Shown piece by piece: positions 3,478 to 21,164 of a stretch of 64,000 nt of DNA (its first letter is position 1; each line of letters begins with the position of its first letter). This DNA comes from an uncultured Myxococcales bacterium (GTDB taxonomy: Bacteria; Myxococcota_A; UBA9042; DTJE01), in contig CALJUR010000108.1 in assembly GCA_937975765.1 (NCBI GenBank), positions 1,574-65,573 on the forward strand. The letters run 5' to 3'. A program made the translations under genes and the position numbers. The notes below the pieces were generated by a model. The model was not told the origin of the DNA. It did no database searches and saw only the letters and a program-made list of their open reading frames with translations.

Positions 3478-3566
3478 GCGACCTCCTTCTTCGGACAACG
3501 GCGACCCGTGAGGTGCATGATAGCATATGCCCGGAATGCGGAGTCCCCCGTTGCGGGATCGGGGGG

Positions 3567-4961
3567 TCACTGCTGGGCGCGGGAGCGCCATGCCTCCAGG
3601 GCGGCCCGGTTGGATGCGCCGTCGGGGGAACTCCACGGGTCGAAGCCCTGGTCGGCGACCCCCAGCGCCGCCATCAGGGCGTGCAGCGCCTCGTCCCGGA
3701 ACAGGGGCGGCGTCGCCGGGTCGGACATCAGGCCCAGCAGCCGGGCCGTCCCGTCGGCCCGCGCCAGTTCCAGCAGGCGCTCGGCCGCGACGAACCGGAC
3801 CTCGACGTCGGTGGCGGCGTCGGCCAGCCGCGCCAGGTCCCCGGCCGATTCCACCCCCCGCATCGCCCGGCGCTTCTCCACCAGGTCCAGGCCCGACAGG
3901 CGCTCGGTCAGCCCTGCCAGGCCGCCGGCATCCCCGGATACGCCGGCCTCCCCGGGTGCGCCCCCCTCGACCGGCGCGGCATGCCCGCGGGCATGGGCTT
4001 CCGAATCCGCGGCCCGTTCGTGCTCGGGCCCCTGGGCCAGGGCCGGGACGCCCGCCATGAAGCGGCCCGCCCCGGCGAATGCCAGGCCCAGGACGACCAC
4101 GACGGCGGCGCCCGCCACCACGTGGCCCAGCGCGCGCAGCCTTTCGGGGGCGCGGATCACGTACACCGCCAGCGCCGCCAGCAGCAGGGCCAGGCCGTAG
4201 AAGGCCACGACCGTGGGCCCGCTGGGCAGGTCGCCCCAGTAGCTGAACGCCAGCCCGATCACCGAGACGGCGGTCCCGACGACCCATCCGATGGCCAGTT
4301 GCAGCCCCATCCGGTCCGTCAGCATCACGCCCAGGATGGCCGGGACCACCAGGAACACGAAGACCAGCAGGACGCCGGCCGTCTGGACCGAGTGGGTGAT
4401 GACCAGGCCGAACAGCAGGTAGAACAGGAAGTCCCACCATCGCACCCGCAGGCCCTGGCGGCGCGCCTCCTCCGGGTCCTCGGAGATCAGGCGGAACGGC
4501 TTGCGGAACAGGAAGTGCAGGGCCCCCACCACGGCGTATGCGGCCGCGGCCTTCCAGACGTCCTCGGCGGTCACCCACAGCAGCGAGCCCGTCGAGATGT
4601 TCTGGATGTGCTCGGCTCCGTGCGGAGCCCCGTACACCGCCAGGATCCCCACCGACGCCGCCAGCGCGTACGACAGGCCGATGACGGCCTCCTGGGGCAC
4701 CCGGTCCTTGCGCAGGCGGGTCAGCGAGAAGACCGCCGCCCCCAGGAACGTGAAGGCCAGCGAGAACAGGTAGGCGCCCGTCGAGTGGGGGTTCAGGCCG
4801 AACAGGAACGCCACCGTGGTGCCCAACGCCGCCACCTGGGCCAGGGCGAGGTCCACGAAGATCACCCGCCGCCGGATCACGTGGAGTCCCAGGTACGAGT
4901 GGATGCCCACCAGGACCAGGCACTCCAGGAACGGCAGCGCCATCAGGCTGACGGCGTTCAC
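3567..4961 (-). CDS. metal ABC transporter permease (ZnuB/MntB/TroD, ABC-3 family) fused to a ~190-aa C-terminal soluble helical extension
   Basis: Polytopic N-terminal 270 aa typical of ABC-3 permeases (LALAQVAALGTTVAF..., GLSYALAASVGIL). GTG start overlaps the binding-protein stop (GTGA). An alternative ATG at 4943 is possible. Confidence 0.7.
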   Translation of the reverse strand: MNAVSLMALPFLECLVLVGIHSYLGLHVIRRRVIFVDLALAQVAALGTTVAFLFGLNPHSTGAYLFSLAFTFLGAAVFSLTRLRKDRVPQEAVIGLSYALAASVGILAVYGAPHGAEHIQNISTGSLLWVTAEDVWKAAAAYAVVGALHFLFRKPFRLISEDPEEARRQGLRVRWWDFLFYLLFGLVITHSVQTAGVLLVFVFLVVPAILGVMLTDRMGLQLAIGWVVGTAVSVIGLAFSYWGDLPSGPTVVAFYGLALLLAALAVYVIRAPERLRALGHVVAGAAVVVVLGLAFAGAGRFMAGVPALAQGPEHERAADSEAHARGHAAPVEGGAPGEAGVSGDAGGLAGLTERLSGLDLVEKRRAMRGVESAGDLARLADAATDVEVRFVAAERLLELARADGTARLLGLMSDPATPPLFRDEALHALMAALGVADQGFDPWSSPDGASNRAALEAWRSRAQQ

Positions 4962-6040
4962 TGCGAAACCTCCTTCGCGGCCCGATCCGCCGCTGCGAAC
5001 CCGTCGGCCAGGTGGCGGATCCAGTAGTCCACCAGGGCGAAGTAGTCATCGACCCCCGGCACGCCGGCCACGGACATGGGAACGATGACCGGGGTCGCCC
5101 CGACGGCGGCCGCGATGTGGCGAACCTTGTCCTCGTCGAAGTAGTTGGCGGCCAGGATCACCGGGACGCGCCGCTCCTTCATCAGCCGGATCAGGTCCTC
5201 GACGTGCTTCGGCGAGGGCGGGATCCCGGGCTTGGGCTCGACCTCGCCCAGGACCTCGACGCCGAAGACCCGCGCGAAGTAGATCCAGTTCTTGTGGTAG
5301 GTGACCAGCGAGCGGCCCCGGAAGGCCAGCGCCTGCTTCATCCAGCCGCCCAGCAGGTCCAGCATCGGGCGCCCCTGCACCGTCCGCGACGACAGGAAGG
5401 AGACCAGGTTGCCCGACTCGGCCAGTCGCTCCAGGGTGTCGCTGCCCAGCAGCGGCAGCAGGTCCGGACCGAACATGCGGCGGTCGATCTCGGCGGCGAA
5501 GGCCCGGGCCCGCTCCCGGTAATCGGCGGCGTGCGCGGCGTCCACCTTCGACAGGCCGGTCGCCAGGTTCCGGGCAACGATCTTCATGTTCAGCGGGTTC
5601 GTGTGGATGTGGGGGTTGCCGTAGATGTGCACCCCCCCCTGCCCGCGGTCCTTGATCTCGGGAATCTCCAGCAGCCGTACCCCGGCCGACACGGACACGT
5701 ACCCCTCCTGGCCCTCCATCACCCTGGGATTGGCCGCCTTGTCCAGCACCGACGGCGCCCACATTTCCAGGTCCAGGCCGGTGGTCACGAACAGGTCCGC
5801 CCGGCTGACCCAGATGGCGAAACTGGGCTTGGGCTTCACGAAATGGGCGTCCTGGTCGCCCTCGCAGATGGCCTTCACGTCCACCCGGTCGCCCCCGACG
5901 GCCCGGGCCACGGCGGCGTAGTCGGTCAGGGTGGTCACGACCTGGATCCGGCGCCCCTCGGCGCGGGCGTCCCCGGGCCCCGCGGCCAGGAATCCGGCCA
6001 CGGCCAGCGCCGCGACCCCGATGACAGCGTGCATCCTCAT
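4958..6040 (-). CDS. metal (Zn/Mn) ABC transporter substrate-binding protein, ZnuA/TroA family
   Basis: Signal peptide MRMHAVIGVAALAVAGFLAAG. TroA-fold hallmarks (HIYGNPHIHTNP, VTYHKNWIYFARVFG, ANYFDEDKV). GGAGGGAG RBS. Confidence 0.8.
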   Translation of the reverse strand: MRMHAVIGVAALAVAGFLAAGPGDARAEGRRIQVVTTLTDYAAVARAVGGDRVDVKAICEGDQDAHFVKPKPSFAIWVSRADLFVTTGLDLEMWAPSVLDKAANPRVMEGQEGYVSVSAGVRLLEIPEIKDRGQGGVHIYGNPHIHTNPLNMKIVARNLATGLSKVDAAHAADYRERARAFAAEIDRRMFGPDLLPLLGSDTLERLAESGNLVSFLSSRTVQGRPMLDLLGGWMKQALAFRGRSLVTYHKNWIYFARVFGVEVLGEVEPKPGIPPSPKHVEDLIRLMKERRVPVILAANYFDEDKVRHIAAAVGATPVIVPMSVAGVPGVDDYFALVDYWIRHLADGFAAADRAAKEVSQ

Positions 6041-6089: not shown

Positions 6090-7520
6090 TCAGTACCGGT
6101 CGTGCTTGTGCGGCCCGGCGGCGAACACCACCTGCAGCAGGACCCGGTGGTCCCGCGGCCTCAAGTCGCCGTCCAGCAGGTCGTACTCCAGGTGCAGGCG
6201 CACGAACTCGCTGGGCTTGTAGTTGACGTAGGGCGCCACCTGCCACAGGTAGTGGCCCTGGTTGTCGGTGTCGAAGGGCTGGGTCAGGTCGCCCTGGATG
6301 CCCAGCATCCACCCCTGCCACACCTTCACGTCCAGCGAGGTGTAGCCGCCCATCCAGTGGATCGGTGCCTTGTTCAGCACCTCCTTGTACCCGTAAAGGA
6401 ACTCGGTCCGCCAGGTGACGCCCGCGTAGTGCGATCGGTTCGCGGGCTCCCAGGACAGCGTCAGGTCGGCGCCCCCGAAGGCCGTGTAGCGCAGGGCCTG
6501 ATCGGCAGGGGTCGCGGCCGGCTTTGCCGTCACCTGGACCGGGTTGCCGTCCTTGTCGTAGAACTCGATCTTCTTCCCGGTCGAGTCGTACACGTCCATC
6601 ACCGCGGCCGTGGCGGTCCGGCCCCGGCCGTGGTTGAACCCCAGGACCCCGGTCAGGCCCAGGTCCAGGTAGGTGTCGCGGTTCAGGTCCCAGTAGTTGC
6701 GCAGGCGCAGCAGGAAGGTCGGGATGCTGAAGAAGCTGCCCGAGAAGGCCCGGGCGTTCTCGCCGTTGGTGACCTGCAGCGTGACGGTCTCCTCGTGGGC
6801 CCACAGCGGCGGCAGCAGGACGTCCAGGGCGACGCCGGTCTGGTTCAGCCCGCCGGCGCCGAAGGGCTCCTGCAGCATCAGCGGGAAGTCGAACTGGTCC
6901 AGCGCGTGCTTGTGCCACCGGTTGACCACGCCCAGCTGCTGCCGGAAGCGGCCGGCGGTCAGGTTCACGCGGGGCAGCACGCTGGTCCAGGTGATGTAGG
7001 CCTCCCCGAACGAGAAGCCCTCGGGGGACATCGAGACGGCCACCTTGAAGAACGAGAAGGGGTCCAGGTTGGCCTGCAGGTGGAGTCCCACCCCGCGGAA
7101 GAAGATCCCCGAGCGCGTCGCGCCGACGTAATCGGCGCCGCTGCGGGTCAGCGCCCGGGCGTACTCCTTCCCGTCGCGGTTCACGTACTGGGCATAGATG
7201 TCGCCCGTGATGCTCAACTCGGGGTTCAGGGCCTGCAGGGCCCGTTCGCCTCCCTGGAAGACCCGCGGGCCGGTGTCGCCCTGGGGGCCCTCCTGGCGGG
7301 CGGCCGCGGCGGCGGCCTGGCGAAGGTCCTCCAGTTCCCGGGCCTCCTTCCAGGCCTTCAGTTCGTCGATCTGCTGCTGCAGCGAACGCAGGACGTCGGT
7401 ATCCAGGGCCGGGGCCGCGGGGGCCGCCGGTGCGGACGGGGGATTCTGCTGGGCCAAGGCGGCGGAGGCCGCCAGCGTGGCGACGGCCAGGACCGTCGCG
7501 CGTGACAGGAACGCGTGCAT
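6090..7520 (-). CDS. outer-membrane beta-barrel / porin-like protein with N-terminal coiled coil
   Basis: Signal peptide MHAFLSRATVLAVATLAASAALAQQ. Alternating amphipathic strands and aromatic-rich segments. Sits directly upstream of znuA-like gene. GGGAGGTAG RBS. Confidence 0.5.
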   Translation of the reverse strand: MHAFLSRATVLAVATLAASAALAQQNPPSAPAAPAAPALDTDVLRSLQQQIDELKAWKEARELEDLRQAAAAAARQEGPQGDTGPRVFQGGERALQALNPELSITGDIYAQYVNRDGKEYARALTRSGADYVGATRSGIFFRGVGLHLQANLDPFSFFKVAVSMSPEGFSFGEAYITWTSVLPRVNLTAGRFRQQLGVVNRWHKHALDQFDFPLMLQEPFGAGGLNQTGVALDVLLPPLWAHEETVTLQVTNGENARAFSGSFFSIPTFLLRLRNYWDLNRDTYLDLGLTGVLGFNHGRGRTATAAVMDVYDSTGKKIEFYDKDGNPVQVTAKPAATPADQALRYTAFGGADLTLSWEPANRSHYAGVTWRTEFLYGYKEVLNKAPIHWMGGYTSLDVKVWQGWMLGIQGDLTQPFDTDNQGHYLWQVAPYVNYKPSEFVRLHLEYDLLDGDLRPRDHRVLLQVVFAAGPHKHDRY

Positions 7521-7605
7521 GTCGCTACCTCCCGGCAGGGATTCCTCGGGGGCCCGTGCCGGGTGCCCGGTCCTTCCGGCACCCGCGTCGCGAACCCGGA
7601 TCGTA

Positions 7606-8031
7606 TCAGGCAGGAACCGGCCGGGTGGGGGGCGAGGCCTTCGGAGCGAGGTGCAGCCCCGGAATGCCGGGCACGTCGAGGGAGCGGGGGAAGAACCGCG
7701 GCAGCAGGGCGACGCAACCCGCCACGATCAGCGGCGGCGGGGCCGTCACGACCTCGACCGGGGCCTGCGCGAAGGCCATGACCGGGCAGCGGTGGTGTTC
7801 GCCCCCCCGGGGGTCCGCGGGAACGCCGTCCGGTTCGCCGGGATGCCGGTGCCCCGCGGCGGGCGGGGGCCGGGCCGGGTCGTCGTCCCCCTCGAACGCG
7901 CCGTGCCGCGCGCAGTACCGGTGCGGGAAGACCGCCAGGTGGACGAAGGCCGAGACCTGGGACACCAGCAGGTTCGCGGCAAACGCGACCGCCAGCCAGC
8001 GCAGCGTCCTCGACCCGGAACGACCGCCCAC
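7606..8031 (-). CDS. possible small two-TM membrane protein (141 aa, GTG start); weak call
   Basis: GC3-rich frame with two hydrophobic helices (LRWLAVAFAANLLVSQVSAFVHLAVF; LIVAGCVALLPRFF). Lies just downstream (minus sense) of conserved-element copy 1. Start uncertain and no homology recognised. Confidence 0.2.
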   Translation of the reverse strand: MGGRSGSRTLRWLAVAFAANLLVSQVSAFVHLAVFPHRYCARHGAFEGDDDPARPPPAAGHRHPGEPDGVPADPRGGEHHRCPVMAFAQAPVEVVTAPPPLIVAGCVALLPRFFPRSLDVPGIPGLHLAPKASPPTRPVPA

Positions 8032-8044
8032 GTTCCCTCGCACC

Positions 8045-8094
8045 CCCGGGGGAATGGGGGAATATTGGGCAAATGCGCAGAATCCGTCAAGGAG
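8045..8094. promoter_or_regulatory. conserved ~50-nt non-coding element, copy 1 (CCCGGG-GAATGGGGGAAT-ATTGGGCAAATGCGCAGAATCCGTCAAGGAG)
   Basis: About 80% identical to 19359..19412, including the identical core TGGGCAAATGCRCAGAATCCGTCARGA. Intergenic. Confidence 0.35.
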
Positions 8095-8123
8095 AAAAGG
8101 CGGGTGCCCGCGGGCCGGACCGG

Positions 8124-11100
8124 TCACGTGGCCGTGGTGCCCGCAACGGCCAGCGTCCAGTTCTCGCAGGACGACCCGCTGACGAACCGCACCTCGATCT
8201 GGATCGTGAAACTGTCGTTGTCCAGCAGGCAGTCGTCGTTGCCGGTCACGGTGACCTGGTCCGTCGCGCCCTCGCCGTTGGTGGAGTGGGCCATCAGCGT
8301 GCCGCACGGCTGGTAGACGTACAGGTCGTAGTTGACGCCCGCCGGGACCGTCAGCGTGACCCGCGCGTGCAGGTCGGTGCAGCAGCCCGAGCACTCCTCG
8401 ATCGTGGCGCTGTACCAGTAGCCGCCGCGGCCGTTCCGGGTCGCCAGCGTGGACCAGGACGTGGACGGGCACAGGAAGCCGGACGTCATGTCGCCGCACT
8501 TCGAGCCCAGGTTCGTCGCGCTGCCGCACGCGTTGGCGTAGGTGGACAGGCTGGCCTCGCACCCGTTGACGGCGTTGCCGTCGCAGTTCGCCCAGCCGCT
8601 GTCGCACGCCCCCAGCACGCAGGTCCGCGTCGCGCAGGATTCGGCGGCGTGGTCGCGCGCGCACGAGGTGCTGCACGCGCCGCAATGCGCCAGCGTGTCC
8701 AGCGACTGCTCGCAGCCGTTGTTCACGTTGCCGTCGCAGGTGCCGTAGCCGGTGTTGCAGTTCGGGGTGCAGACGGACCCCACGCAGGCGTTCGTGCCGT
8801 TGACCTGCTGGCAGACCGTGCCGCACGCCCCGCAGTTGTCCGCATCGCTGGTCAGGTCGCGGCAGACGTTGCTGCAGCAGGCCCCGGTCGCGCACTCGGC
8901 GCCGCTGGTGCAGGCCTGCCCAGCGTCCTTGCGGCACGTGCCGCCGATGCAACTGTACCCGGTCTGGCAGTCCGACGGCTGGCTGCATGTCGTCCGGCAC
9001 AGGCCGGTCGCCGGGTTGCAGGCGTACCCGATGCATGCCTGCGATCCGCCGTCCGAGCAGGTGCCGGCGCCGTCGCAGGTGTCGGCCAGGTAGCTGGTGT
9101 TGCCCGTGCAGGAGGCCGCCTGGCAGGTGGTGCCCGCGTCGTACAGCGCGCACGACCGGGACCCGGAACACGCCCCGGTCCGGTCGCACGAGGACACCCC
9201 GTCCACCGGGCACTCGTTGTCCAGGTCCTGGCCCGCGGGCACCGGGTCGCACCAGCCGGCGCGTCCCGCCAGGTCGCAGGCCTCGCAGGTGCCGCCGCAG
9301 CGCGCCCGGCAGCAGACGCCGTCGGTGCAGAAGCCGGATGCGCACTCGGTGTCCGCCGAGCAGGCCACGCCGGCGGATCGCAGGCAGGCCGTCCCGACGC
9401 ACTCGTGATCCGCCGCGCAGTCCGCGTTGGCGCCGCAGGCGGCCAGGCAAAGGCCCGTGGCCGGCGAACAGACATACGGCGCGCAGGTCTTCGTTCCCGC
9501 GTCCAGGCACGACCCGCCACCGTCGCACAGGTCCGCCAGGATGGACGTCCCGGTGCCCAGGCAGGTCGCGGGGGCGCAGGTCGTGCCCACGGGGTACAGC
9601 GCGCAGGCGGACGCCCCCGAGCACATCCCGGTGCGGCCGCACGTCGAGGTCGGCTGGTCCGTGCACTCGTTGTCGTAGTCGCTGCCGGCCGGCACGGGCT
9701 CGCAGAAGCCCGCGGTGCCCGGCAGGTTGCAGCGCGCGCAGATCCCGTCGCACGCGGACTCGCAGCAGACGCCGTCGACGCAGAACCCGGTGGCGCACTC
9801 GGTTCCCGTCGAGCAGCCCTGGCCGGTCGACAGCAGGCAGGCACCGCCCACGCAGGTGCGGTTGGTGGTGCAGTCGCCGCTGCCGGTGCAGGTCGTGCGG
9901 CAGGCGCCCGTCGCCGCGTCGCACGTGTAGGGCTGGCAGTCCACGTTCGGCGAGTCCACGCACGTGCCGTTCCCGTCGCACGCGTCGGCCGGGTCCGACG
10001 ACACGCTGCTGGCGCAGACGGCCGCCGCGCAACCCGTGCCCTCCGGCAGCAGCGCGCAGGACCGCTGGCCCGAACACTCGCCCGTCCGGCCGCATGTCTT
10101 GATCGCGTCGGCGGGGCACTCGCCCGCGGGGTCCGTGCCCGCCGGCACCGGGTCGCAGAATCCCTCGCGACCCGCCTGGTTGCAGGACTCGCAGGTGCCG
10201 CTGCACCGCGTCCCGCAGCACGTCCCGTCCCAGCATTCGCCGCTGGCGCACTCGGTCCCCGAGGCGCAGGGCTGGCCCTCGTCCTTCTTGCAGGTGGTTC
10301 CGACGCACACGTACCCCGTCGTGCAGTCGTCGTCGATCGCACAGGTGGTGCGGCATGCCCCCGTCCCGGCGTCGCACCCGTACGACCCGCAGGGGACCGT
10401 CCGCGCGGCGAGGCAGGTCCCCAGCCCGTCGCACAGCGCGGCCAGGGCCATCGTCGCGTCGTCCACGCAGTACCCCGCGGCGCAGACCTTCCCGTCCGGG
10501 GCCAGCGCGCAGGACCGCAGGCCGCTGCACGCGCCCGTCGTGCCGCACGACAGGGCGCCGCTGTTCGCGCACTCCCCGTCCGGGTCCTCGCCGGACGGCA
10601 CCGCGGCGCAGCGCCCCTCCTGGCCGGCCAGCGCGCAGGACTCGCAGAGGCCGTGGCACCGTGCGTCGCAGCACACGCCGTCCGTGCAGAACCCGCGGGC
10701 GCACTCGGCGTCCGCGCCGCAGGGCTGGCCGTCGGCCTTCAGGCAGGCCGTGCCGGCGCATGCGTATCCCGCCTGGCAATCCGCGCTGGTGCCGCAGGTC
10801 GTCCGGCACCCCCCGGTCACCGGGTCGCAAAGGTACGGCAGGCACTGCACGATGCCCGCGTCGATGCACGCCCCGGCGCCGTCGCACGCGTCGACCGGAT
10901 ACGACGCGTACAGCGAGGCGCACGCCCGGACCGAGCACGGGGTGCCCTGCCCGAACAGCCGGCAGCCTCCCTGCCCGTCGCACGTGCCCTCCGTGCCGCA
11001 CGTCGAGGCCTCCCGGTTCGGGCACTCGGCGTCGGGGTCGGTCTGGTCCGGCATCCACGTGCACGTGCCCTCGCTGCCTCCCAGGTCGCACGCCTCGCAC

Positions 11101-13439
11101 AGCCCGTCGCACGCCCGGTCGCAGCAGCGCCCGTCCACGCACAGCAGCGTGGCGCACTCCATCCCGTCCGCGCACGAGGCGCCCTCGACCTTCCGGCAGG
11201 CCCCCTGCGAGCACCGCGTGCCGGCCTGGCACTGGTCGTCCTGCACGCAGGCCGTCAGGCAGGTGCCGGTCGTGGTGTCGCAGACGTACGGGTGGCAGGC
11301 GGTGGTGCCGCCGTCGATGCACGCCCCCTTCCCGTCGCACTCGTCGGTGTTGGCGGAGGTCCCCGCGTCCAGGCACTCGGCCGGGTGGCACGTGGACCCG
11401 ACGGCCCACAGCGAGCAGGACCGGAAGCCCGAACAAGTCCCGGTCAGCCCGCAGCCCTCCGCACCCGAGGCCTCGCACTCGTCGCCCGGGTCCTGCCCCT
11501 CCGGCACGGCCAGGCACTCGCCGACGGCGCCCTCCAGGTCGCACACCTCGCAGGTCCCGTCGCAGCGCGACCCGCAGCACACGCCGTCGGTGCAGAAGCC
11601 GGACGCGCACTCGGCGTCCGCGCTGCACCCCTGGCCCTCGTCCCGCAGGCAGTACCCGTCGGCGCAGGCGAAGCCGGGCCCGCAGTCCCGGTCGAAGAAG
11701 CACGACTGCCGGCACAGGCCGGTCGCGGCGTCGCACGTGAACGGGGCGCAGTCGATCGTCCCCCGGTCCAGGCAGGCGCCCAGGCCGTCGCAGGTGGACG
11801 AGGCGTGCGCCACCGTCGCCGCGTCGCACGCGGAAGGCGCGCAGACCGTCCCCGCGGGCCACAGCGTGCAGGCGGACAGCCCCGAGCACTCGCCGGTCGT
11901 GCCGCACGTCGCCGGGTCGGCAGCCGCGCATTCCGCGTCCGGGTCGGTGCCGACAGGCAGCGGCGTGCAGGTCCCCTTCGTCTGGGCCAGGTCGCACCGC
12001 TCGCACGTGCCGTCGCAGCGGGAATCGCAGCAGACACCGTCGACGCACAGGCCCCGGACGCACTCGTCGTCCCCGCCGCACGGCTGGCCGGGGACCTTAC
12101 GGCACACGCCATCGTCGCACGTCCAGGGGGCCTGGCAGTCCTCCGGCCCGGTGCAGGACGCCAGGCACCCCTTCTGCGCCGTCGAGCACACCGTCGGGAA
12201 GCACTCGGCCAGCGTGTCCTCGTCGGTGGTGCCGTCGCAGTCGTCGTCCACGCCGTTGCACCGCTCGGTGGCCGTGGGCTTCACCGCGCCGTCGCCGTCG
12301 TCGCAATCGCCGCCCGTCGTCACGTCGTAGGGCGCCTCGCCCTGGCACAGGCACTTCGAGTCGCCGTCCACGCCGTAGCGATCCCGGTCCTCGTCCTTCA
12401 GGAAGTTCGTGCAGCCCGCGGCACCCTCCTCGTCCACCTCGCGGTCGCAGTCCTCGTCCAGCCCGTTGCCGCACACCTCCGGGGCCGCGGCCGTGCCCTC
12501 GCACAGCGGCTTGCCCCCCACGCACCGGGACGTGCCGGGGCACTCGCCATACGCGTTGACGATCGTGCAGGCCTGGCCGTCCAGCCCCTGGTCGGTGGCG
12601 CCGTCGCAGTCGTTGTCCGCCCCGTCGCAGGTCTCGGCGACCGGCGTCGCCGCGGTGCACGGCGCGTCGCAGGTGCGCTCGGCCGTGCAGGTCCAGTCGC
12701 CCACGGTCACCCGGCAGACCGTCAGCGCCCCCTCGTCCCGGTACCGGTCGGTGCACGGGCACGGTTCGCCTTCCGCCGGCCGGCACTGCTTCGCCGACAC
12801 GCGCCCGGAGGTCGCGTCGACGCAGTCGTACCCGTCCGGGCAGTCCCCGGCGACCTCGCACCCCGACCCGCAGAAGCTCCCCTCGGGACCCTGCTCGAGG
12901 CACAGGAACCGCCGGTTGCCCCCTCCGAGGATCTGGCAGTCCGCCGCAGTCCGGCAAGGGCGGCACAGGTTCGCGTGGCGGTCGATGCACCCGAAGACCG
13001 GCTCGTCGCCCACGCTGCTGATCTGCTCGCAGCCCCAGCCCGGCGGGCAGTCGATGCCCAGGCCGCACAGCTTCGAGCAGACCGATCCATCCCGGGTCAT
13101 CGTGCAGAAGCCGGACAGGCAGTCCGCGTTGTCCGAACAGGCACAGCCGAAGCCGTGGCAGTCCGCCGCGGAGTCGGCCTCGGCGTCCAGCGGTGCATCG
13201 CCGTCCGGCAGCGTGTCCCCGGGGGGCAGTTCGCCGCCCGGATCCGCGGGGATGCCGTCCTCCTCGGCCAGGTCGCACCGCTCGCAGCCGGGGTCGGCCA
13301 GGTCGGGCAACTCGCCGGTCCCGGGGTCCGCCACGGGGGTGTCGGGCTGGCCGGCGCCGTCGTCCAGCGCCACCTTCCCGTTCCCCTCGCACGCCGCCAT
13401 CGCCAGCACCAGGCCCAGCGCCAGGATCCCGCGTCGCAT
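8124..13439 (-). CDS. giant (1771 aa) cysteine-rich repeat lipoprotein; N-terminal MopE-like CxGxDDDCDG motifs followed by ~16 tandem ~100-aa Cys-rich modules (myxobacterial Cys-rich repeat type)
   Basis: Lipobox in MRRGILALGLVLAMAAC. Reiterated module ...CxxGxCxxGxCCxxxCxGxCExCxLxGxxGxCxxVPxGxDPxxEC.... GGGGAGG RBS. The opposite-strand 1491-aa and 1830-aa ORFs are artefacts. Confidence 0.85.
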   Translation of the reverse strand: MRRGILALGLVLAMAACEGNGKVALDDGAGQPDTPVADPGTGELPDLADPGCERCDLAEEDGIPADPGGELPPGDTLPDGDAPLDAEADSAADCHGFGCACSDNADCLSGFCTMTRDGSVCSKLCGLGIDCPPGWGCEQISSVGDEPVFGCIDRHANLCRPCRTAADCQILGGGNRRFLCLEQGPEGSFCGSGCEVAGDCPDGYDCVDATSGRVSAKQCRPAEGEPCPCTDRYRDEGALTVCRVTVGDWTCTAERTCDAPCTAATPVAETCDGADNDCDGATDQGLDGQACTIVNAYGECPGTSRCVGGKPLCEGTAAAPEVCGNGLDEDCDREVDEEGAAGCTNFLKDEDRDRYGVDGDSKCLCQGEAPYDVTTGGDCDDGDGAVKPTATERCNGVDDDCDGTTDEDTLAECFPTVCSTAQKGCLASCTGPEDCQAPWTCDDGVCRKVPGQPCGGDDECVRGLCVDGVCCDSRCDGTCERCDLAQTKGTCTPLPVGTDPDAECAAADPATCGTTGECSGLSACTLWPAGTVCAPSACDAATVAHASSTCDGLGACLDRGTIDCAPFTCDAATGLCRQSCFFDRDCGPGFACADGYCLRDEGQGCSADAECASGFCTDGVCCGSRCDGTCEVCDLEGAVGECLAVPEGQDPGDECEASGAEGCGLTGTCSGFRSCSLWAVGSTCHPAECLDAGTSANTDECDGKGACIDGGTTACHPYVCDTTTGTCLTACVQDDQCQAGTRCSQGACRKVEGASCADGMECATLLCVDGRCCDRACDGLCEACDLGGSEGTCTWMPDQTDPDAECPNREASTCGTEGTCDGQGGCRLFGQGTPCSVRACASLYASYPVDACDGAGACIDAGIVQCLPYLCDPVTGGCRTTCGTSADCQAGYACAGTACLKADGQPCGADAECARGFCTDGVCCDARCHGLCESCALAGQEGRCAAVPSGEDPDGECANSGALSCGTTGACSGLRSCALAPDGKVCAAGYCVDDATMALAALCDGLGTCLAARTVPCGSYGCDAGTGACRTTCAIDDDCTTGYVCVGTTCKKDEGQPCASGTECASGECWDGTCCGTRCSGTCESCNQAGREGFCDPVPAGTDPAGECPADAIKTCGRTGECSGQRSCALLPEGTGCAAAVCASSVSSDPADACDGNGTCVDSPNVDCQPYTCDAATGACRTTCTGSGDCTTNRTCVGGACLLSTGQGCSTGTECATGFCVDGVCCESACDGICARCNLPGTAGFCEPVPAGSDYDNECTDQPTSTCGRTGMCSGASACALYPVGTTCAPATCLGTGTSILADLCDGGGSCLDAGTKTCAPYVCSPATGLCLAACGANADCAADHECVGTACLRSAGVACSADTECASGFCTDGVCCRARCGGTCEACDLAGRAGWCDPVPAGQDLDNECPVDGVSSCDRTGACSGSRSCALYDAGTTCQAASCTGNTSYLADTCDGAGTCSDGGSQACIGYACNPATGLCRTTCSQPSDCQTGYSCIGGTCRKDAGQACTSGAECATGACCSNVCRDLTSDADNCGACGTVCQQVNGTNACVGSVCTPNCNTGYGTCDGNVNNGCEQSLDTLAHCGACSTSCARDHAAESCATRTCVLGACDSGWANCDGNAVNGCEASLSTYANACGSATNLGSKCGDMTSGFLCPSTSWSTLATRNGRGGYWYSATIEECSGCCTDLHARVTLTVPAGVNYDLYVYQPCGTLMAHSTNGEGATDQVTVTGNDDCLLDNDSFTIQIEVRFVSGSSCENWTLAVAGTTAT

Positions 13440-13593
13440 CGGATGCCTCCCCGCACCCCGGGCCGGGGCGCGTCCTGGACGGTCAACACTGCCGCATCGA
13501 GGCCATTCTACCGGCGAGGGGGCGAAAGTTCGACCGGGATCGCGCCGGGGTGCAGGCGCACGTAAGCACGGCGACGTCCGTCGGCCGGGGGGT

Positions 13594-14973
13594 TCAGAAC
13601 GTGTACGCCAGCGCCCAGCACAGCAGCATCACCAGCGGCGCGTGCACCAGCAACTGCAGGATCGAGAAGCCGGCCAGTTCGCGGGCCCTCGCGTTCAGCA
13701 GGCCCATCAGCGGCAGCATCCAGAAGGGGTTGACCAGGTTCGGCAGGGCCTCCGCGGCGTTGTAGATCTGCACCACCCAGCCGGCATCCGTGCCGTGCGC
13801 GCCGGCCGCGGCCAGCAGGTAGGGCGCCTCGATTACCCACTTGCCGCCGCCGGACGGCACGAACAGGCCCAGCACGGCCGAGTACGCCGCCGTGAACAGC
13901 GGGAAGGTGTGCGGCGTGGTCACCGACGTGAACGCATCGGCCAGCAGCGCCGACAGCGCGGTGCCGGTCAGGATCCCGAAGATGCCGCCGTAGAACGGGA
14001 ACTGCACCAGCACGCCGCCGGTCGCCGGGACCGCGCCCGACACGGCCTTCAGGAAGGACCGCGGCCGGCCGTGCAGCACCATCCCCAGCATCAGGAAGGC
14101 CAGGTTGTAGGTGTTCAGGTCCAGCGCCGCCAGGCCGCCCTTCTCGGCGAAGACGATCGCGAGGTAGGCGATGCCCAGCGCCGCGACGGACAGCGACAGC
14201 ACGCGGCTGTGCTCCAGGCGCTCGCCGGGCGTGGCGGGCGCGTCCACGGTGACGACCGGGGGCTGCAGGCGCACGTCCAGGTCCTCGGCGGTGCGGACGC
14301 GGTCCTCGGCGGGGTACGAGAACCAGGCGACGACGACCGACACGGCCACCAGCGCCACGACCAGGACGAGGTTCTGCCACAGGAACAGGGTGCGGGACAG
14401 CGGCAGCACGCCGGTGACGTCCTTCAGCGCGGCGGGCAGCGCGTCGGGCGTGGCCATCATCAGCGCGGCCGACGACGACAGGCCCAGCGCCCAGATGCTG
14501 CCCAGGCCCAGGTAGGCCGCGGCGCCCAGGGCGCGGAAGTCCACGCGGCGGTGCCGGGTCGCCAGTTCGCGGACCAGCAGGCCGCTGAAGATGAGGCTGA
14601 AGCCCCACGACAGCAGCGAGGCCAGCATGGCGAACAGGGCGGTGAAGGCGACGGCGCCGCGCGGCGTGCGCGGGATGCGGGCGATCCGGCGGATCAGGCC
14701 GTGCACGGGCGGCGACACGGCCACCACGTAGCCGCCCAGGATGACCATGGCCATCTGCATCGTGAACGGGACCAGCGACCAGAAGCCCTTGCCGAAGGCG
14801 CGGGCCATCTCCAGCGGGCCGGCGCCGGCGAGGAGGCCGCCGCAGAAGACGATCGCCACGGCCAGCAGGGCGAAGACGAAGGCGTCCGGGAAGTACCGTT
14901 CGGACCAGTCCGCCAGGCCCGCGCCCCACCGGGACAACCAGCCACCACCACCGGGATTCGTTCGCGTTTCCAT
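13594..14973 (-). CDS. short-chain fatty acid transporter, AtoE family
   Basis: N-terminus SERYFPDAFVFALLAVAIVF matches the AtoE family start. Polytopic, 459 aa. Confidence 0.7.
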   Translation of the reverse strand: METRTNPGGGGWLSRWGAGLADWSERYFPDAFVFALLAVAIVFCGGLLAGAGPLEMARAFGKGFWSLVPFTMQMAMVILGGYVVAVSPPVHGLIRRIARIPRTPRGAVAFTALFAMLASLLSWGFSLIFSGLLVRELATRHRRVDFRALGAAAYLGLGSIWALGLSSSAALMMATPDALPAALKDVTGVLPLSRTLFLWQNLVLVVALVAVSVVVAWFSYPAEDRVRTAEDLDVRLQPPVVTVDAPATPGERLEHSRVLSLSVAALGIAYLAIVFAEKGGLAALDLNTYNLAFLMLGMVLHGRPRSFLKAVSGAVPATGGVLVQFPFYGGIFGILTGTALSALLADAFTSVTTPHTFPLFTAAYSAVLGLFVPSGGGKWVIEAPYLLAAAGAHGTDAGWVVQIYNAAEALPNLVNPFWMLPLMGLLNARARELAGFSILQLLVHAPLVMLLCWALAYTF

Positions 14974-15275
14974 GCGGCGGTTCTACCACGAGGCCGGGCC
15001 GGGGGGCCAGGGCGGGCGAGGTCGGGATGTCGATGCCGCGGCGCCGTGCGGCGGCGACGGCACCGTGGAGATCCCGGACACCGGATGCGCCGACCACATG
15101 GCCACCTGCGCGGCCTCCCACTCCGACGCGGTCCAGCCGTTCCGAGGCGCGTCCGGTCGCGTTTTACGCCGAAGGTCCTGGCCCGCCTGCACGCTCGGGA
15201 ACTCGCACCCACCCCGGGGGGAGGGCAGCATCGGGGGCACAATGTTCCTGCCGGTCGTCGGTGCCTCGCGGGCGA

Positions 15276-15914
15276 TCACCGGACGGCCGCGATCTCCACG
15301 AGCACACTGCGCAGCTTGCCGAAGCTCCGGGAGGTGTTCCGAGCGGGCTCCATGCGTGCCGCGATTGCCCGGGCAGCTTCGATCTTGCGCAATCCGCCCC
15401 TGAAGTAGCCAGCCCTTTGCAGTTCGCGCTCGAATGCCTCCCAGGTGCCGCCCGCAACGGCATCGGGGTCGCGGAACCCCGCGCGCGAAGGGATCGTTGC
15501 CGGAACGTTCGGATAGGCGGCCCGAACCGCCGCCCAGTCCCCGAAATACCAGGCCTCAAGTTCCTCGATGGCAAGGCGGTTGACCACGGTCCATCTGGAG
15601 TTGGAACCGGGAGATCGGGGCACAAGGCCGACGTCCTTCACCATCCTGTCCAGTCGCTGCTTCAGCGCGACGCACTGGTCGTTGTCGCGATCGACCACGA
15701 CCACCACGCGAACGTGATCGCGGAACCAAGGGTCGCTCCGCATCCGGTTGGCATACCCCTGCATGCGCTGGGGCAGGCGCTCCAGGAGTTCGTCCTTGCA
15801 CTGGAAGGGGAAGACCTCGTGGGGCAGGTTTCCCAGGATCCTGGGCAGCAACAGGCGCAGCGCCGCCTCCATGGAGGGTTCTTCGACCAGGACCTCGACA
15901 TGATCGACGCTCAT
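15276..15914 (-). CDS. DUF4276-family protein (212 aa), putative TOPRIM-like effector partner of the upstream ATPase
   Basis: Length and pattern of DUF4276: N-terminal [23 protein letters not shown], central [11 protein letters not shown] (DxD), [13 protein letters not shown] 15912-15914 overlaps the ATPase TGA (ATGA). The track's longer start is in-frame upstream read-through. Confidence 0.65.
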
Positions 15915-17149
15915 CGCCCCTTCCCCGTCCCGGAAGGGGCTCCCAGACGCACCAGCGGATCGCCGACGCCGAATCGGCCCTCCATCCACAAATGGCCCAG
16001 CGTGGCGCCCGCCTCCACATGCTCCCGCACACCAGCGATGTCTCCTGCCTTAAGCGTCTGCGAGTATCCTTCCGGGTCTCGCCACAGGACCCGGACCTCG
16101 TCCGGCCGCAGAGCGTTCAGGAAGAACGGCGAGTGCGTCGTGACCAGCATCTGCGTCCGCTCGCTGGCCGCGCGACACTCCTCGGCCAGTTCCGGCAGCA
16201 GTCTCGGGTGCAGGAAGTTCTCGGGTTCCTCGATTCCGATGAATGGCGGAGGATTGGGGTCGTACAGCAGCACCAGGTATGCCAGCATCTTCAGCGTGCC
16301 GTCGGAAGCGAACCGGGCCAGGACCGGATTGTTGAACGGCGCGTCCTTGATCTGGAGAAGCAGCCGGCCGTCCGGCATGGTTTCGGACAGGACCTTCTCG
16401 ATCCGGGGCACCCGTCGACGAAGCACCTCGAAAATCCGCTCCAGGCGTTCCGGATGGCGTTCCGCGAGGAACTGGATCACGTTCGCAAGGTTGTCCCCGG
16501 TCTTCGCCAGGCGCTCCTGGGGTCCCGCCTCGGGCTGGCCGCGCATGCTCTCGGCAGCAAGGTAGGACACGTACCATCCCGTGATGAAATCCCGTAATGC
16601 CGCCACGCGGGGGTGTTCTGCGAACTGGCCAAGGGCATTCACTGCCAGCAGGTCCGGGGACTTCAGAGGGACCTCCGCGCGGTGGTCCTGCTCGTCGGGC
16701 AGTTCCCCGCTGACCGCCCTCCCCTGGCCCTCGCGATAGTCCAGGAACTTGAACGGCCGGCCGTGGGCACCCCGCTTCCACTGCAACCACTCCTCGACGA
16801 CGACAGGCGTCCCTGTACCGCGCTCGTCGATGGCGAGGTGGTACGTGATCAGGGGGAACCCGTGTTCGCGATACTTCAACTCGATCGATACGGGGCCTGT
16901 CGATCCCCGGCTCCGCAGTTCCTTCGCGCGTCCCCGCTTGTCCCAGGCGCGCCGAAGTCCCATTTCGAAGCACTCGGCCATGAATGCGAACACGTCAAAG
17001 ACCGTGGACTTGCCGCCGCCATTCGGGCCCAGGAGGACCGTCATCGGCGTCATCGTCTTGAACTCGACCTCGCGCAGGGCGCGGAAGTTCCGGACCTTCA
17101 GGTACTCGATCCGCGCCAGCGCCCGCGGTCGATCCGTGGCCGGTTTCAT
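15911..17149 (-). CDS. AAA_21-type ABC ATPase (OLD/AbiEii-like N-terminal ATPase), 412 aa
   Basis: Walker [13 protein letters not shown] signature, Walker B and D-loop [23 protein letters not shown]-loop TTHSP. GGAGGTGG RBS 5 nt before ATG 17149. Confidence 0.85.
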
Positions 17150-17609
17150 GGAACCACCTCCGGGAATCTCATCGAGTCATCGGCCTCCCACTCGTCCGAT
17201 GCAAGTCTCGGAACCGGCGAACAGCGCATCCACACGAACACCTCGGCGCTGCCTGGCCGCGTTGCGTCCGGGTTCAATGGCGAGTCTTACTTCAGAACGA
17301 TGACAGCGGTTTGATGATGACGGGTCACTGGGTGGGCCCCGATGGGCGCAGACAAAAGGGTTCGGCCCGACGGGTTCGAAGGCGGCGGCGACGCCCTGTC
17401 CACGGTCTGCCGGCCTGGCCGGAGCAATCGTCGCCACGGCTGCGGGAACCGGGACATGGTGTCACCACGGACCCCGGGATCGCGGCCACTCGCCGGAAGT
17501 TTCAGGTGCCCCTGAGCCATCACGCCGCAAGAGGTGATCCGGCAGGACGCGCGCTACGGGGCGGCCTCCGCGGGATGGTACGATGCGGCATCCCTGCATG
17601 GAGCCCGGC

Positions 17610-19241
17610 ATGCACCTTCGACCCGTGACCCTGGCAACCCAGGCGGCCGTCCTGATGCTGGCCGCGGCGTGCGGCGGCGGCGGCGACCCGTCGGGCCTCG
17701 TGCCGGCGGGGAAGGGACCGTTCGTGGAGGCGGCGCCGACGGCGGCCGAGGTGCAGGCCCGGCTGCAGGTGCTGGCGGCCGAGGGCGAGACGGCCGTGCC
17801 CGCGGACACGAGGGCCGCCCTCGCCGCGCACGTGCAGGACCCCGGGGAGATCACGCCGCCGATCGGGACCGAGCACCGCATCCCGGCCGACGCCGCCGGG
17901 TACTGGCACGGGCTGGGCGTGAAGGCCTTCGTGAAGGGGTCGGGGGCCACCGCGCTGTGGTGCTTCGCGCAGGCCGCGATGGCGAGGCCCGGCGACGGCT
18001 TCCTGCTGTCGCAGGCCGGTTTCGCGCTGGCGTACCAGGACCGGGCGGACGAGGCGCTGCCGCTGCTGCGGTACGCCGCGACGCGCGCCCCGGACGACGC
18101 GATCGTCCTGCAGAACGTCGCCTTCGCGTACCGGAAGGCCGGCGACCTGCCCCGGGCGACGTACTGGACGGCGAAGGCCCTGGCGGCGAACCCGGACGAC
18201 CCGCGGCTGCACCTGAAACTGGCGCGGCTGCTAAAAGAACGCGGCCAGCCCCAGGCGGCCCGGGCGCTGCTGGACGTGGCGGTCCGGCGCGCGCCGCGCG
18301 ACGAGGAGATCCAGGCGGCGCGCGAGGCGCTGCCGGCGGTGACGGGGGCGCTGGAGGCCGTGCCGCGGTCGTACGGCCGGGCGACGCGGGCGCTGGAGGG
18401 CGACGAAGGCGGTCCCGAGACGCTGCGCGAGGACGTCGCCGCCGCCGTCGCGGAAGCCGACGCGGACTACGAGGCGCAGTCGAAGCTGGCCGAGGACGAG
18501 ATCCAGCGCGAGACCGCCGCGCGACAAGCGGAGCACTACGACCACGTCGCCGACGCCGGGGCCTGCATGAACGGCTGCGGGGGCGGGGAGGGCTGCAGCG
18601 CGCAGTGCCAGGCGGCGTTCTGCAGCGCCGAGGAGGCGTCGCACGCCGCGTTCGCGGGCCTGGTGCCGAGGTATGCGCCGCGGCTGCAAGGCCTGGCCGT
18701 CGCGCACGCCGCGGCGGTCGAGGCCGCGACCTGGGACGCGGTGGCGCGCTGGCACGGCAAGGCGTCCGACGAGGCGCTGGCCGACGAGATCGACCAGATG
18801 GAGCGCAATGTCGCCGGGATGCACCAGGCGTCGACGATGTACTACCCGATGGTCGAGGGGTCGATCGCCGCGGACCGCGCGACGTTCGAGGCGTCCTGCC
18901 AGTTGGGCGTGCTGGACCTGGGGGGGCTCTGGGACGCCGAGGACGAGGACCCGCTGCAGTATGACGTCTGCTTCGACGGCTTCCTGTGCCTGGGCGTCAA
19001 CGACAGCACCGTCACGGTCGAGGGCGGCTTCGGGCCGCTGCAGGGCGAGGTCGGGTTCGACCTGGGCACCGGCGACTTCTCGCTGGGGATCGGGCTGGGC
19101 GCGCGGGACCCGACCGGCATGATCCGCGGGACGGCCCTGGTGAAGTTCCACACCGACAAGGGCGTCGGCGTCGGCGTGGACGTGAAGGTGGGCCCGGCGC
19201 TGGCGATCAAGGCGTCCCGCGACGTCTGGCTGACGGACTGA
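17610..19241 (+). CDS. TPR-repeat lipoprotein with C-terminal Cys cluster
   Basis: Lipobox in MHLRPVTLATQAAVLMLAAACGG. TPR-like helices (ALWCFAQAAMARPGDGFLLSQAGFALAYQDRADEALPLL...). Alternative ATG at 17598. Confidence 0.55.
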   Translation: MHLRPVTLATQAAVLMLAAACGGGGDPSGLVPAGKGPFVEAAPTAAEVQARLQVLAAEGETAVPADTRAALAAHVQDPGEITPPIGTEHRIPADAAGYWHGLGVKAFVKGSGATALWCFAQAAMARPGDGFLLSQAGFALAYQDRADEALPLLRYAATRAPDDAIVLQNVAFAYRKAGDLPRATYWTAKALAANPDDPRLHLKLARLLKERGQPQAARALLDVAVRRAPRDEEIQAAREALPAVTGALEAVPRSYGRATRALEGDEGGPETLREDVAAAVAEADADYEAQSKLAEDEIQRETAARQAEHYDHVADAGACMNGCGGGEGCSAQCQAAFCSAEEASHAAFAGLVPRYAPRLQGLAVAHAAAVEAATWDAVARWHGKASDEALADEIDQMERNVAGMHQASTMYYPMVEGSIAADRATFEASCQLGVLDLGGLWDAEDEDPLQYDVCFDGFLCLGVNDSTVTVEGGFGPLQGEVGFDLGTGDFSLGIGLGARDPTGMIRGTALVKFHTDKGVGVGVDVKVGPALAIKASRDVWLTD

Positions 19242-19358
19242 CCGTGGCGGGGGCCCCGTCCCCTGGCGGCGCCCACGATGGGCGCCGTACCTGTGCGGGA
19301 AGACCGCCAGGCAACGCAACGCCCGCCTGCCCGAACCCCCGGCCATGGCTTCCACGCC

Positions 19359-19412
19359 GGCCCGGGAAATGGCAGGATCGCTGGGCAAATGCACAGAATC
19401 CGTCAGGACGGA
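19359..19412 (+). promoter_or_regulatory. conserved ~50-nt non-coding element, copy 2, immediately upstream of a small secreted-protein gene
   Basis: CCCGGG-AAATGGCAGGATCGC-TGGGCAAATGCACAGAATCCGTCAGGACGG is followed by GGAAGGAGG-N5-ATG. Homologous to 8045..8094. Confidence 0.35.
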
Positions 19413-19423
19413 AGGAGGTCATC

Positions 19424-19720
19424 ATGCGCGCGCTCGTGACAGGGGCTGCATTCCTGCTGTTGTCGGGCGTCGCGAACGCCGACTCGCTTCACGGGAACTG
19501 CTTCCAGGAGAAGGGCGCCCCTTGTACCCCGAACCGGAAGATCACGACCGACGCGGGCACCGGAACGGCCCGGATCGATCCCCGCTATGGGAACTACGAA
19601 CTGGACCTGGGGGACATGGAGGATCGCATCGTGACCGTGTTCTGCGACGGAAGGAAGGTCGGTTCGCTGCGGGTGCAAGGACGGACGCTGTTCGTGGTCC
19701 GCTGCGACCCGTACCGCTGA
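19424..19720 (+). CDS. small secreted protein (98 aa)
   Basis: Perfect SD GGAAGGAGG 5 nt upstream. Signal peptide MRALVTGAAFLLLSGVANA. Four Cys. Confidence 0.5.
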   Translation: MRALVTGAAFLLLSGVANADSLHGNCFQEKGAPCTPNRKITTDAGTGTARIDPRYGNYELDLGDMEDRIVTVFCDGRKVGSLRVQGRTLFVVRCDPYR

Positions 19721-21137: not shown

Positions 21138-21164
21138 TGTAGGGCGGGGGCCCTGTTTCCCGCC
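21138..21164. repeat. REP-like GC-rich palindromic element (TGTAGGGCGGGGGCCC...CCCGCC), variant copy
   Basis: Shares TGTAGGGCGGGGGCCC and the CCCGCC arm with the elements at 45205, 46625 and 58302. Confidence 0.4.

Follow-up and report, generated by a model that had tools for sequence, protein, structure and literature searches.

In a stretch of 64,000 nucleotides (nt) from an uncultured Myxococcales bacterium (assembly GCA_937975765.1, contig CALJUR010000108.1; 72% G+C), the whole of which is called the window here, an element with a 27-nt core occurs twice, and the first-pass annotation of this DNA had described it as a conserved non-coding element in unrelated contexts. We consider it likely that the first occurrence (copy 1) is a sigma-70-type promoter of a metal-uptake operon on the minus strand and that the second (copy 2) is a decayed, inverted, partial duplicate of that locus. 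Judged by its sequence, the feature combines an ordinary promoter, which may include an operator, with the relic of a gene fragment.

A predicted sigma-70-type promoter at copy 1

Read on the minus strand, the copy-1 element is CCTTGACGGATTCTGCGCATTTGCCCAATATTCCCCCATTCCCCCGGGGGTGCGAGGGAACGTG, and its parts are listed in Table 1. The -35 hexamer TTGACG agrees with TTGACA at five of six positions, and the -10 hexamer has an A at position 2 and a T at position 6, both of which are kept in all three lineages compared below. A consensus scan of positions 7900-8200 found a sole promoter-like site, on the minus strand inside the element, which the tool read as TTGACG-18-AATATT (0.0 expected). The giant Cys-rich gene and all genes down to about position 3500 lie on the minus strand, and the GTG start of a gene for a protein of 141 amino acids (aa) is found at 8031, 30 nt downstream of the -10. 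From the position of the -10 we infer a transcription start near 8055. Copy 1 is accordingly annotated here as a predicted sigma-70-type promoter, TTGACG-17-CAATAT, of the minus-strand operon, and given this anatomy the 27-nt core, seen from the opposite strand, takes in the -35 and the spacer and reaches two bases into the -10.

RNA polymerase would use the -35 TTGACG (8090-8085), the 17-nt spacer and the -10 CAATAT (8067-8062), and the transcript would run from its start through a 24-nt leader into the genes for the small 141-aa protein, a porin, a ZnuA-like protein and a permease. The previous proposal of a promoter or transcription-factor site holds insofar as the element is a conserved regulatory signal, but the plus strand had been taken as the functional one and copy 1 serves the minus strand. 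The 141-aa open reading frame (ORF) noted at that time on the minus strand (8031-7606) is exactly the product given by public gene calls.

Conservation of the predicted promoter across lineages

Orthologous operons were fetched from other contigs by way of the porin and the small protein, and the sequences upstream of the first gene in the three groups that carry the motif are given in Table 1. The -35 is found at the orthologous position in each of them, as TTGACG in L010 and L027 and as TTGACA in L023, and in both L027 and L023 a 17-nt spacer leads to the -10 hexamer CATTAT. In the lineage with 49% G+C the motif reads TTGACA...GCATTTGCCCATTAT. The best ungapped upstream 29-mers agree at 24/29 positions between the window and L027 and at 23/29 between the window and L023, compared with same-locus control maxima of 21 and 19. 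Invariant in the alignment are TTGAC, TT, GCAT.TGCCCA and.TAT, and the two positions at which close strains differ fall where the spacer varies between lineages as well. The close relative L010/L011 lacks the 5.5-kb giant gene, and a short-chain fatty-acid transporter gene ends there 30 nt before the -35. Since the motif is kept in L010/L011 without the giant gene, it stays with the operon when the upstream neighbour changes. The motif was also sought upstream of the giant gene itself and of an operon in L018 that encodes a MopE-like protein, a redoxin and a 95-aa protein, and was absent from both places.

The spacer block as a candidate operator

The 3' half of the spacer, GCATYTGCC, abuts the -10 and is conserved between lineages as strongly as the hexamers. 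While the conservation of the hexamers is explained by RNA polymerase, that of GCATYTGCC is not, so a regulator site is suggested there. The block may be where a regulator binds; the most plausible candidate is a metal-responsive repressor that would occlude the -10 by binding GCATYTGCC. A Fur-family box is an AT-rich 7-1-7 palindrome, to which GCATYTGCCCA shows no resemblance. The arrangement is nevertheless similar to that of the metal-uptake operons znuABC (controlled by Zur) and mntABC (controlled by MntR) in three respects: a -35 TTGACR, a 17-nt spacer and a -10 with A2/T6 stand about 30 nt before the first gene; the operon encodes a ZnuA-family binding protein and an ABC-3 permease; and the conserved block borders on the -10, the usual binding place of Fur-family repressors. 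It differs from them in that the block is G+C-rich, weakly palindromic and unlike the published Zur boxes, and in that no regulator gene is adjacent.

Other readings of the same letters were discarded. Direct-repeat half-sites ATTCTGC/ATTTGCC are inconsistent in L023, inspection spoke against a sigma-54 reading of TGGCAT..TTGCC, whose GG-GC spacing is 7 where 10-12 would be required, and the 17-nt spacer does not fit a MerR-type promoter, which has 19-20 nt. The Zur boxes published for delta-proteobacteria are ATGCAACnnnGTTGCAT and TAAATCGTAATnATTACGATTTA (PMC545781). Upstream of the orthologous operon in L030 (2330-2360), a -35 TTGACA is followed by ATGCAAC, which is identical to one half-site of the Desulfovibrio Zur box ATGCAACnnnGTTGCAT, and the other half agrees at 4/7 positions.

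Copy 2, a probable decayed duplicate

A pattern search with up to three mismatches on both strands of the window matched the 27-mer only at 8066-8092 and 19382-19408, in both cases on the plus strand, while 0.00 matches were expected from 100 dinucleotide shuffles. The two cores differ at 2 of 27 positions, and their description as two copies 11 kb apart was correct. Similarity had been said to reach about 20 nt upstream of the core; it does continue upstream, but its extent was underestimated, as it runs to a 30-nt block (7910-7939 versus 19282-19311) with 28/30 identity that is collinear with the core in a MAFFT alignment and by BLAST. BLAST of copy 1 against copy 2 aligned 105 nt at 72% (7987-8089 versus 19302-19405) and 30 nt at 93%. 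With the core excluded, the 28/30 score was reached by none of 500 dinucleotide shuffles and by none of 495 random genomic segments. Between the core and the 30-mer lies a diverged block of about 60 nt with about 63% identity (p ~0.03 versus genomic controls), which is separated from the 30-mer by a 57-nt gap in copy 2. An extension of the duplication past the 30-mer was sought, and nothing significant was found.

The 28/30 block consists of the LAVFPHRYCA codons of the small gene. On its minus strand copy 2 encodes MAGGSGRRALRCLAVFPHRYGA, where copy 1 encodes VGGRSGSRTLRWLAV-[19 residues]-FPHRYCA, and these 19 codons (57 nt) are gone from copy 2. The missing nucleotides lie exactly between two CTGGCGGTC repeats of copy 1, which is the signature of a slippage deletion; after the duplication, copy 2 would have lost the 57 nt by slippage between the CTGGCGGTC repeats, and also its -10. 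Past the remnant, the frame continues only as the antisense shadow of a TPR gene. In a sister strain (L003), about 98% identical in this region, another 48 nt (19247-19294) have been lost, and half of the 30-mer with them. At the promoter end, CTGACG agrees with TTGACA at 4/6 positions, CAGCGA in the place of the -10 fails the A2/T6 test, and no promoter-like site was called on either strand of 19200-19500. To judge from these changes, copy 2 is probably not an active promoter.

Copy 2 is placed between the TPR gene and a gene for a 98-aa protein, head-to-head with the latter. Homology was sought between this TPR gene and the TPR gene preceding the operon in L027, and none was found. An exact scan for GGCAAATGCNCAGAATCCGTCA in a collection of species-representative genomes, which does not hold the window's own genome, gave two chance matches in coding DNA of unrelated metagenome-assembled genomes (MAGs), and the same scan of 241 million metagenome records gave one true match, the copy 2 of a close strain. 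No third copy of the core pattern was found elsewhere in the 64-kb window or in the fetched loci.

Copy 2 is, as far as its letters can tell, an inverted and partial copy, specific to its lineage, that covers the promoter, the leader and ~40 codons from the start of the small gene. The two contexts are consequently not unrelated, as had been assumed, because copy 2 duplicates part of the copy-1 locus, coding sequence included, and is paralogous to it. The first-pass annotation had reasoned that the edge of a longer dispersed repeat would speak for a repeat instead of a regulatory signal. The core does lie at the edge of a duplication of about 130-180 nt, but this has two copies and is not an insertion sequence (IS) or a miniature inverted-repeat transposable element (MITE). 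As in pseudogene remnants left by segmental duplication, the promoter, leader, start codon and N-terminal codons follow one another in copy 2 as they do at the parent locus, and copy 2 has an internal deletion between short direct repeats, a frame that is not intact and a further deletion in the sister strain. In contrast to such remnants, its identity to the parent is patchy, with 93% blocks flanking a 63% block, and its -35 side lies directly against the ribosome-binding site of another gene, so that a secondary role in regulation is conceivable.

Weighing the readings

Several observations speak against the interpretation of copy 1 as a promoter with a regulator site and of copy 2 as its decayed duplicate. 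The hexamers are a match to the consensus, of 8/12 with the 17-nt spacer or 9/12 with the 18-nt spacer of the scan tool. The spacer motif is absent from the more distant orthologues L030, L032, L033, L034 and L012, whose upstream regions have other sigma-70-like hexamers (e.g. TTGAAT-18-TAGCAT), so that the footprint rests on three lineages. The spacer block forms a weak dyad at best (TGnGCAnnTGCnCA, 4-5/7 pairs), no Fur/DtxR-type domain was found among the ~30 window ORFs scanned, and GCATYTGCCCA matches neither of the two published Zur boxes (PMC545781). Finally, identity between the copies amounts to 53/57 in the core and the 30-mer and to 37/59 between them (Fisher p = 1e-4), a patchiness not expected if a recent duplication had simply decayed neutrally. 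To account for it, the copies would have to have been selected in the past as two functional paralogues, to have undergone gene conversion or, in the case of copy 2, to be under selection now. Copy 2 may possibly derive from a once-functional paralogue or a foreign copy, in which the promoter and the HLAVFPHRYC motif were held by selection before decay; short gene-conversion tracts may possibly have kept the blocks alike; or the core of copy 2 may possibly be under present selection as a candidate regulator site for the 98-aa gene. The single polymorphic core position has its states swapped between the two loci of the sister strain. Given that the 30-mer is partly lost in L003, high identity alone is no proof of present function.

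The last of these possibilities leads to an alternative that we regard as unlikely, namely that one regulator, probably metal-sensing, binds GCATTTGCCCA at both loci and that the pseudogene fragment has been co-opted to control the 98-aa gene. The spacer of copy 2 is intact (TGACGGATTCTGTGCATTTGCCCA) while the first base of its -35 and four bases of its -10 have changed, lineages as different in composition as 72% and 49% G+C have the spacer block in common, and identity between the copies is heterogeneous. Moreover, the operon is metal-related, homologues of the 98-aa protein sit with MopE-like and redoxin genes, and the copy-2 block lies 16-40 nt before the ATG of the 98-aa gene. However, the other block of high identity, the 30-mer, is half deleted in the sister strain, so identity does not prove present selection, and strain divergence at copy 2 is about 2% in genes and spacer alike, with no sign of constraint. 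In addition, no regulator gene was found among the window ORFs scanned, no known box matches, only two sites exist in 64 kb, and the fetched loci hold no further copy. The fuller version, in which an undescribed metal-responsive regulator of an uncultured Myxococcota clade has GCATYTGCCCA as its operator and the co-opted inverted pseudogene fragment has brought the 98-aa protein under the control of the porin/ZnuA-like operon, earns somewhat less of our confidence and is offered as speculation.

It is improbable that copy 2 acts as a plus-strand promoter of the 98-aa gene, with CAGAAT (19394-19399) as -10 and a start ~18 nt before the ATG. This hexamer shows the A2/T6 pattern and is common to both copies, no other promoter-like site lies in the 182-nt spacer, and a start ~7 nt after the hexamer would leave a short leader carrying GGAAGGAGG. 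Yet the -35 is poor (GGCAGG or TGGCAG, 2/6) and not conserved between the copies, the scan did not call the site, and the hexamer belongs to the part of the spacer that varies between lineages. At copy 1 the same hexamer would direct transcription antisense to the giant gene, into its 3' end, where no gene is served.

The previously favoured promoter for an extracytoplasmic function (ECF) sigma factor, with CGTC as -10 on the plus strand, now merits hardly any credence. ECF promoters are of the type GGAAC-N16/17-CGTC, and what the element shares with them is the tetranucleotide CGTC, since CCGTCA is present in both copies. A GGAAC-like -35 is missing at 16-18 nt; the nearest GGAAT/GGAAA lies at 21 nt in copy 1 and at 31 nt in copy 2, unaligned between the copies. 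The plus strand at copy 1 leads only into the antisense of the giant gene, and in the orthologous L023 the hexamer TTGACA turns CGTC into TGTC, where it makes a perfect sigma-70 -35. The preferred ECF reading is therefore contradicted by its spacing, by the strand at copy 1 and by the lack of conservation of CGTC. Very little more can be said for an RNA motif, whether cis-regulatory or of a small RNA, for a conserved upstream ORF or for a MITE or IS end, although the element is conserved and its core contains an ATG. As for the small RNA or leader motif that had been considered, no Rfam family reached its gathering score in the whole window, and a relaxed search found nothing at copy 1 and a single sub-threshold match, outside the core, at copy 2. 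Folding z-scores were -0.86, -0.31, +0.12 and +0.35 over both strands, i.e. not above background, and at copy 1 the operon mRNA would not contain the core, which precedes the predicted start. The upstream ORF that was likewise entertained is not conserved, as it has 16 codons in copy 2 and is a shadow ORF of 1830 codons in copy 1, with neither lengths nor peptides shared, and the homologous ATG in L027 reads ATG CGC TAA. A mobile-element end is contradicted by the presence of two copies in 64 kb, by the collection scans, which beyond the close strain's copy 2 returned chance coding matches, by the lack of inverted-repeat termini and by the collinearity of the repeat with the start of the small gene.

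The operon and neighbouring genes

The 141-aa protein, which is rich in His and Cys, has homologues with 75% and 33% identity. Members of its family have ~120-170 aa and an N-terminal hydrophobic segment, and their alignment shows HLAxxPHRYCxxHGxFE, a variable His/Asp-rich loop, CPxxAF and an invariant C-terminal APKxSPP. A match to Pfam or NCBIfam was sought for the family without result. The small gene precedes the porin gene in L027, L030, L032, L033 and L034 (in L030 it is uncalled and was found by translation), stands upstream of a 516-aa protein of unknown type in L012, and is absent in L023-L026. From this gene order, the family is predicted to head the porin-ZnuA-permease operon of Myxococcota MAGs wherever it is present.

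The 476-aa protein has no sequence match in Pfam, NCBIfam or PDB. It has 450 homologues (E<=1e-5), several of them from sources named as Myxococcota, Polyangia or Deltaproteobacteria, and the family is consistently encoded beside a ZnuA-like gene. Its AlphaFold2 (AF2) model, with a predicted local distance difference test (pLDDT) score of 82, is a beta-barrel with a long N-terminal helix, and the best fold matches are OprP (2o4v, E 1.9e-11) and OprO. The model supports its prediction as an OprP/OprO-like outer-membrane porin and backs the porin label that the gene had received before.

Table 1. Features of the two loci and of orthologous operons; positions without a locus name refer to the window.
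Feature	Position or locus	Strand	Basis or remark
ABC-3 metal transporter permease, 464 aa	3567-4961	-	public gene calls and NCBIfam
ZnuA/AztC-like periplasmic metal-binding protein	4958-6040	-	Pfam ZnuA 9e-50; NCBIfam AztC/MntC-like, below equivalog cut-offs
Outer-membrane porin-like protein, 476 aa	6090-7520	-	AF2 model and fold matches
His/Cys-rich small membrane protein, 141 aa, first gene of the operon	7606-8031	-	identical public gene call
Predicted leader of ~24 nt with ribosome-binding site GAGGGA	8032-8055	-	sequence identical in L010/L011
-10 hexamer CAATAT, copy 1	8062-8067	-	CATTAT in L027 and L023
17-nt spacer GATTCTGCGCATTTGCC, copy 1	8068-8084	-	3' half GCATTTGCC at 8068-8076 kept across lineages, candidate operator
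-35 hexamer TTGACG, copy 1	8085-8090	-	promoter scan and orthologous position
Copy-2 remnant: leader and 5' end of the small gene	19282-19377	-	ATG 19346-19344, then MAGGSGRRALRCLAVFPHRYGA
Copy-2 promoter block	19378-19408	-	CTGACG 19401-19406; same spacer 19384-19400; CAGCGA in the -10 place 19378-19383
Ribosome-binding site GGAAGGAGG and gene of 98-aa secreted Cys-containing protein	19410-19720	+	gene 19424-19720; public gene call
Members of the small-protein family	window 7606-8031 (-); L027 2599-3111; L034 1389-1769; L032 2443-2898; L033 2557-2922; L030 2405-2845; P0003
Close relative, about 87-96% nt identity	L010/L011		upstream of first gene, gene orientation: TTGACGAATTCTGTGCATTTGCCCAATAT
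Lineage with porin 69% identical, 72% G+C	L027-L029		upstream of first gene, gene orientation: TTGACGAATTTAGCGCATCTGCCCATTAT
Lineage with porin 66% identical, 49% G+C, small gene absent	L023-L026		upstream of first gene: TTGACAGGTTATTGGCATTTGCCCATTAT

In the ABC-3 permease, models of the ZnuB/AztB type span only residues ~14-263 of 464, and the C-terminal 200 residues lie outside them. No ABC ATPase gene is found in the operon here or at the orthologous loci. Downstream of the permease follow a multihaem cytochrome gene and a ferritin gene. On the other side, the giant gene (8124-13439) encodes a Cys-rich protein of 1771 aa with MopE motifs and tandem repeats of 453 nt (151 aa). This gene and its flanks (8111-13593) are absent from L010/L011, a relative with about 87-96% identity in the regions on either side, where the transporter gene adjoins the operon promoter, i.e. 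a strain-specific insertion or deletion of 5.5 kb.

The 98-aa gene after copy 2, described before with its GGAAGGAGG Shine-Dalgarno sequence, is real and coincides exactly with a public gene call. Its homologue in L018, which comes from another organism (63% identical), starts 18 nt after a redoxin gene and lacks the element. There it is the last gene of a cluster (6898-10288) that encodes a MopE-like protein (812 aa), an AhpC/redoxin and the 95-aa protein, the homologue in question. The cluster hints at a thiol- or metal-related periplasmic role for the homologue of the 98-aa protein.

The 48 nt that distinguish the window (19247-19294) from L003 are flanked by GTGGCGGG/GTGCGGG and hold an 8-bp hairpin, GGCGCCCA-CGA-TGGGCGCC, just past the stop of the TPR gene. 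A dispersed G+C-rich hairpin repeat, (T)GTAGGGCGGGGGCCCCGTCCCCCGCC, has 7 matches in the window versus 0.4 expected, at 21139, 45206, 46423(-), 46535, 46626, 58303 and 58309(-), with a related stretch at 19246-19263, and it resembles repetitive extragenic palindromic (REP) elements. Those of its copies that were looked at are intergenic, and an 18-nt piece lies inside the 48 nt missing from L003. Within the copy-2 remnant, 19309-19357 on the plus strand gave an Rfam match to the Pseudomonas small RNA P10 with 17.5 bits (gathering score 37, E 0.074), which was taken as chance.

Significance

Beyond annotation, the finding matters little. It assigns the signal to a strand and a type and marks the head of an operon conserved in Myxococcota, with a small His-rich protein, an OprP-like porin, a ZnuA-like protein and a permease, the first two of which are without family assignment. 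It also illustrates that a conserved non-coding motif in two contexts can be the relic of a gene fragment. If it is true that the spacer block is an operator, it would provide a first handle on metal regulation in this uncultured lineage.

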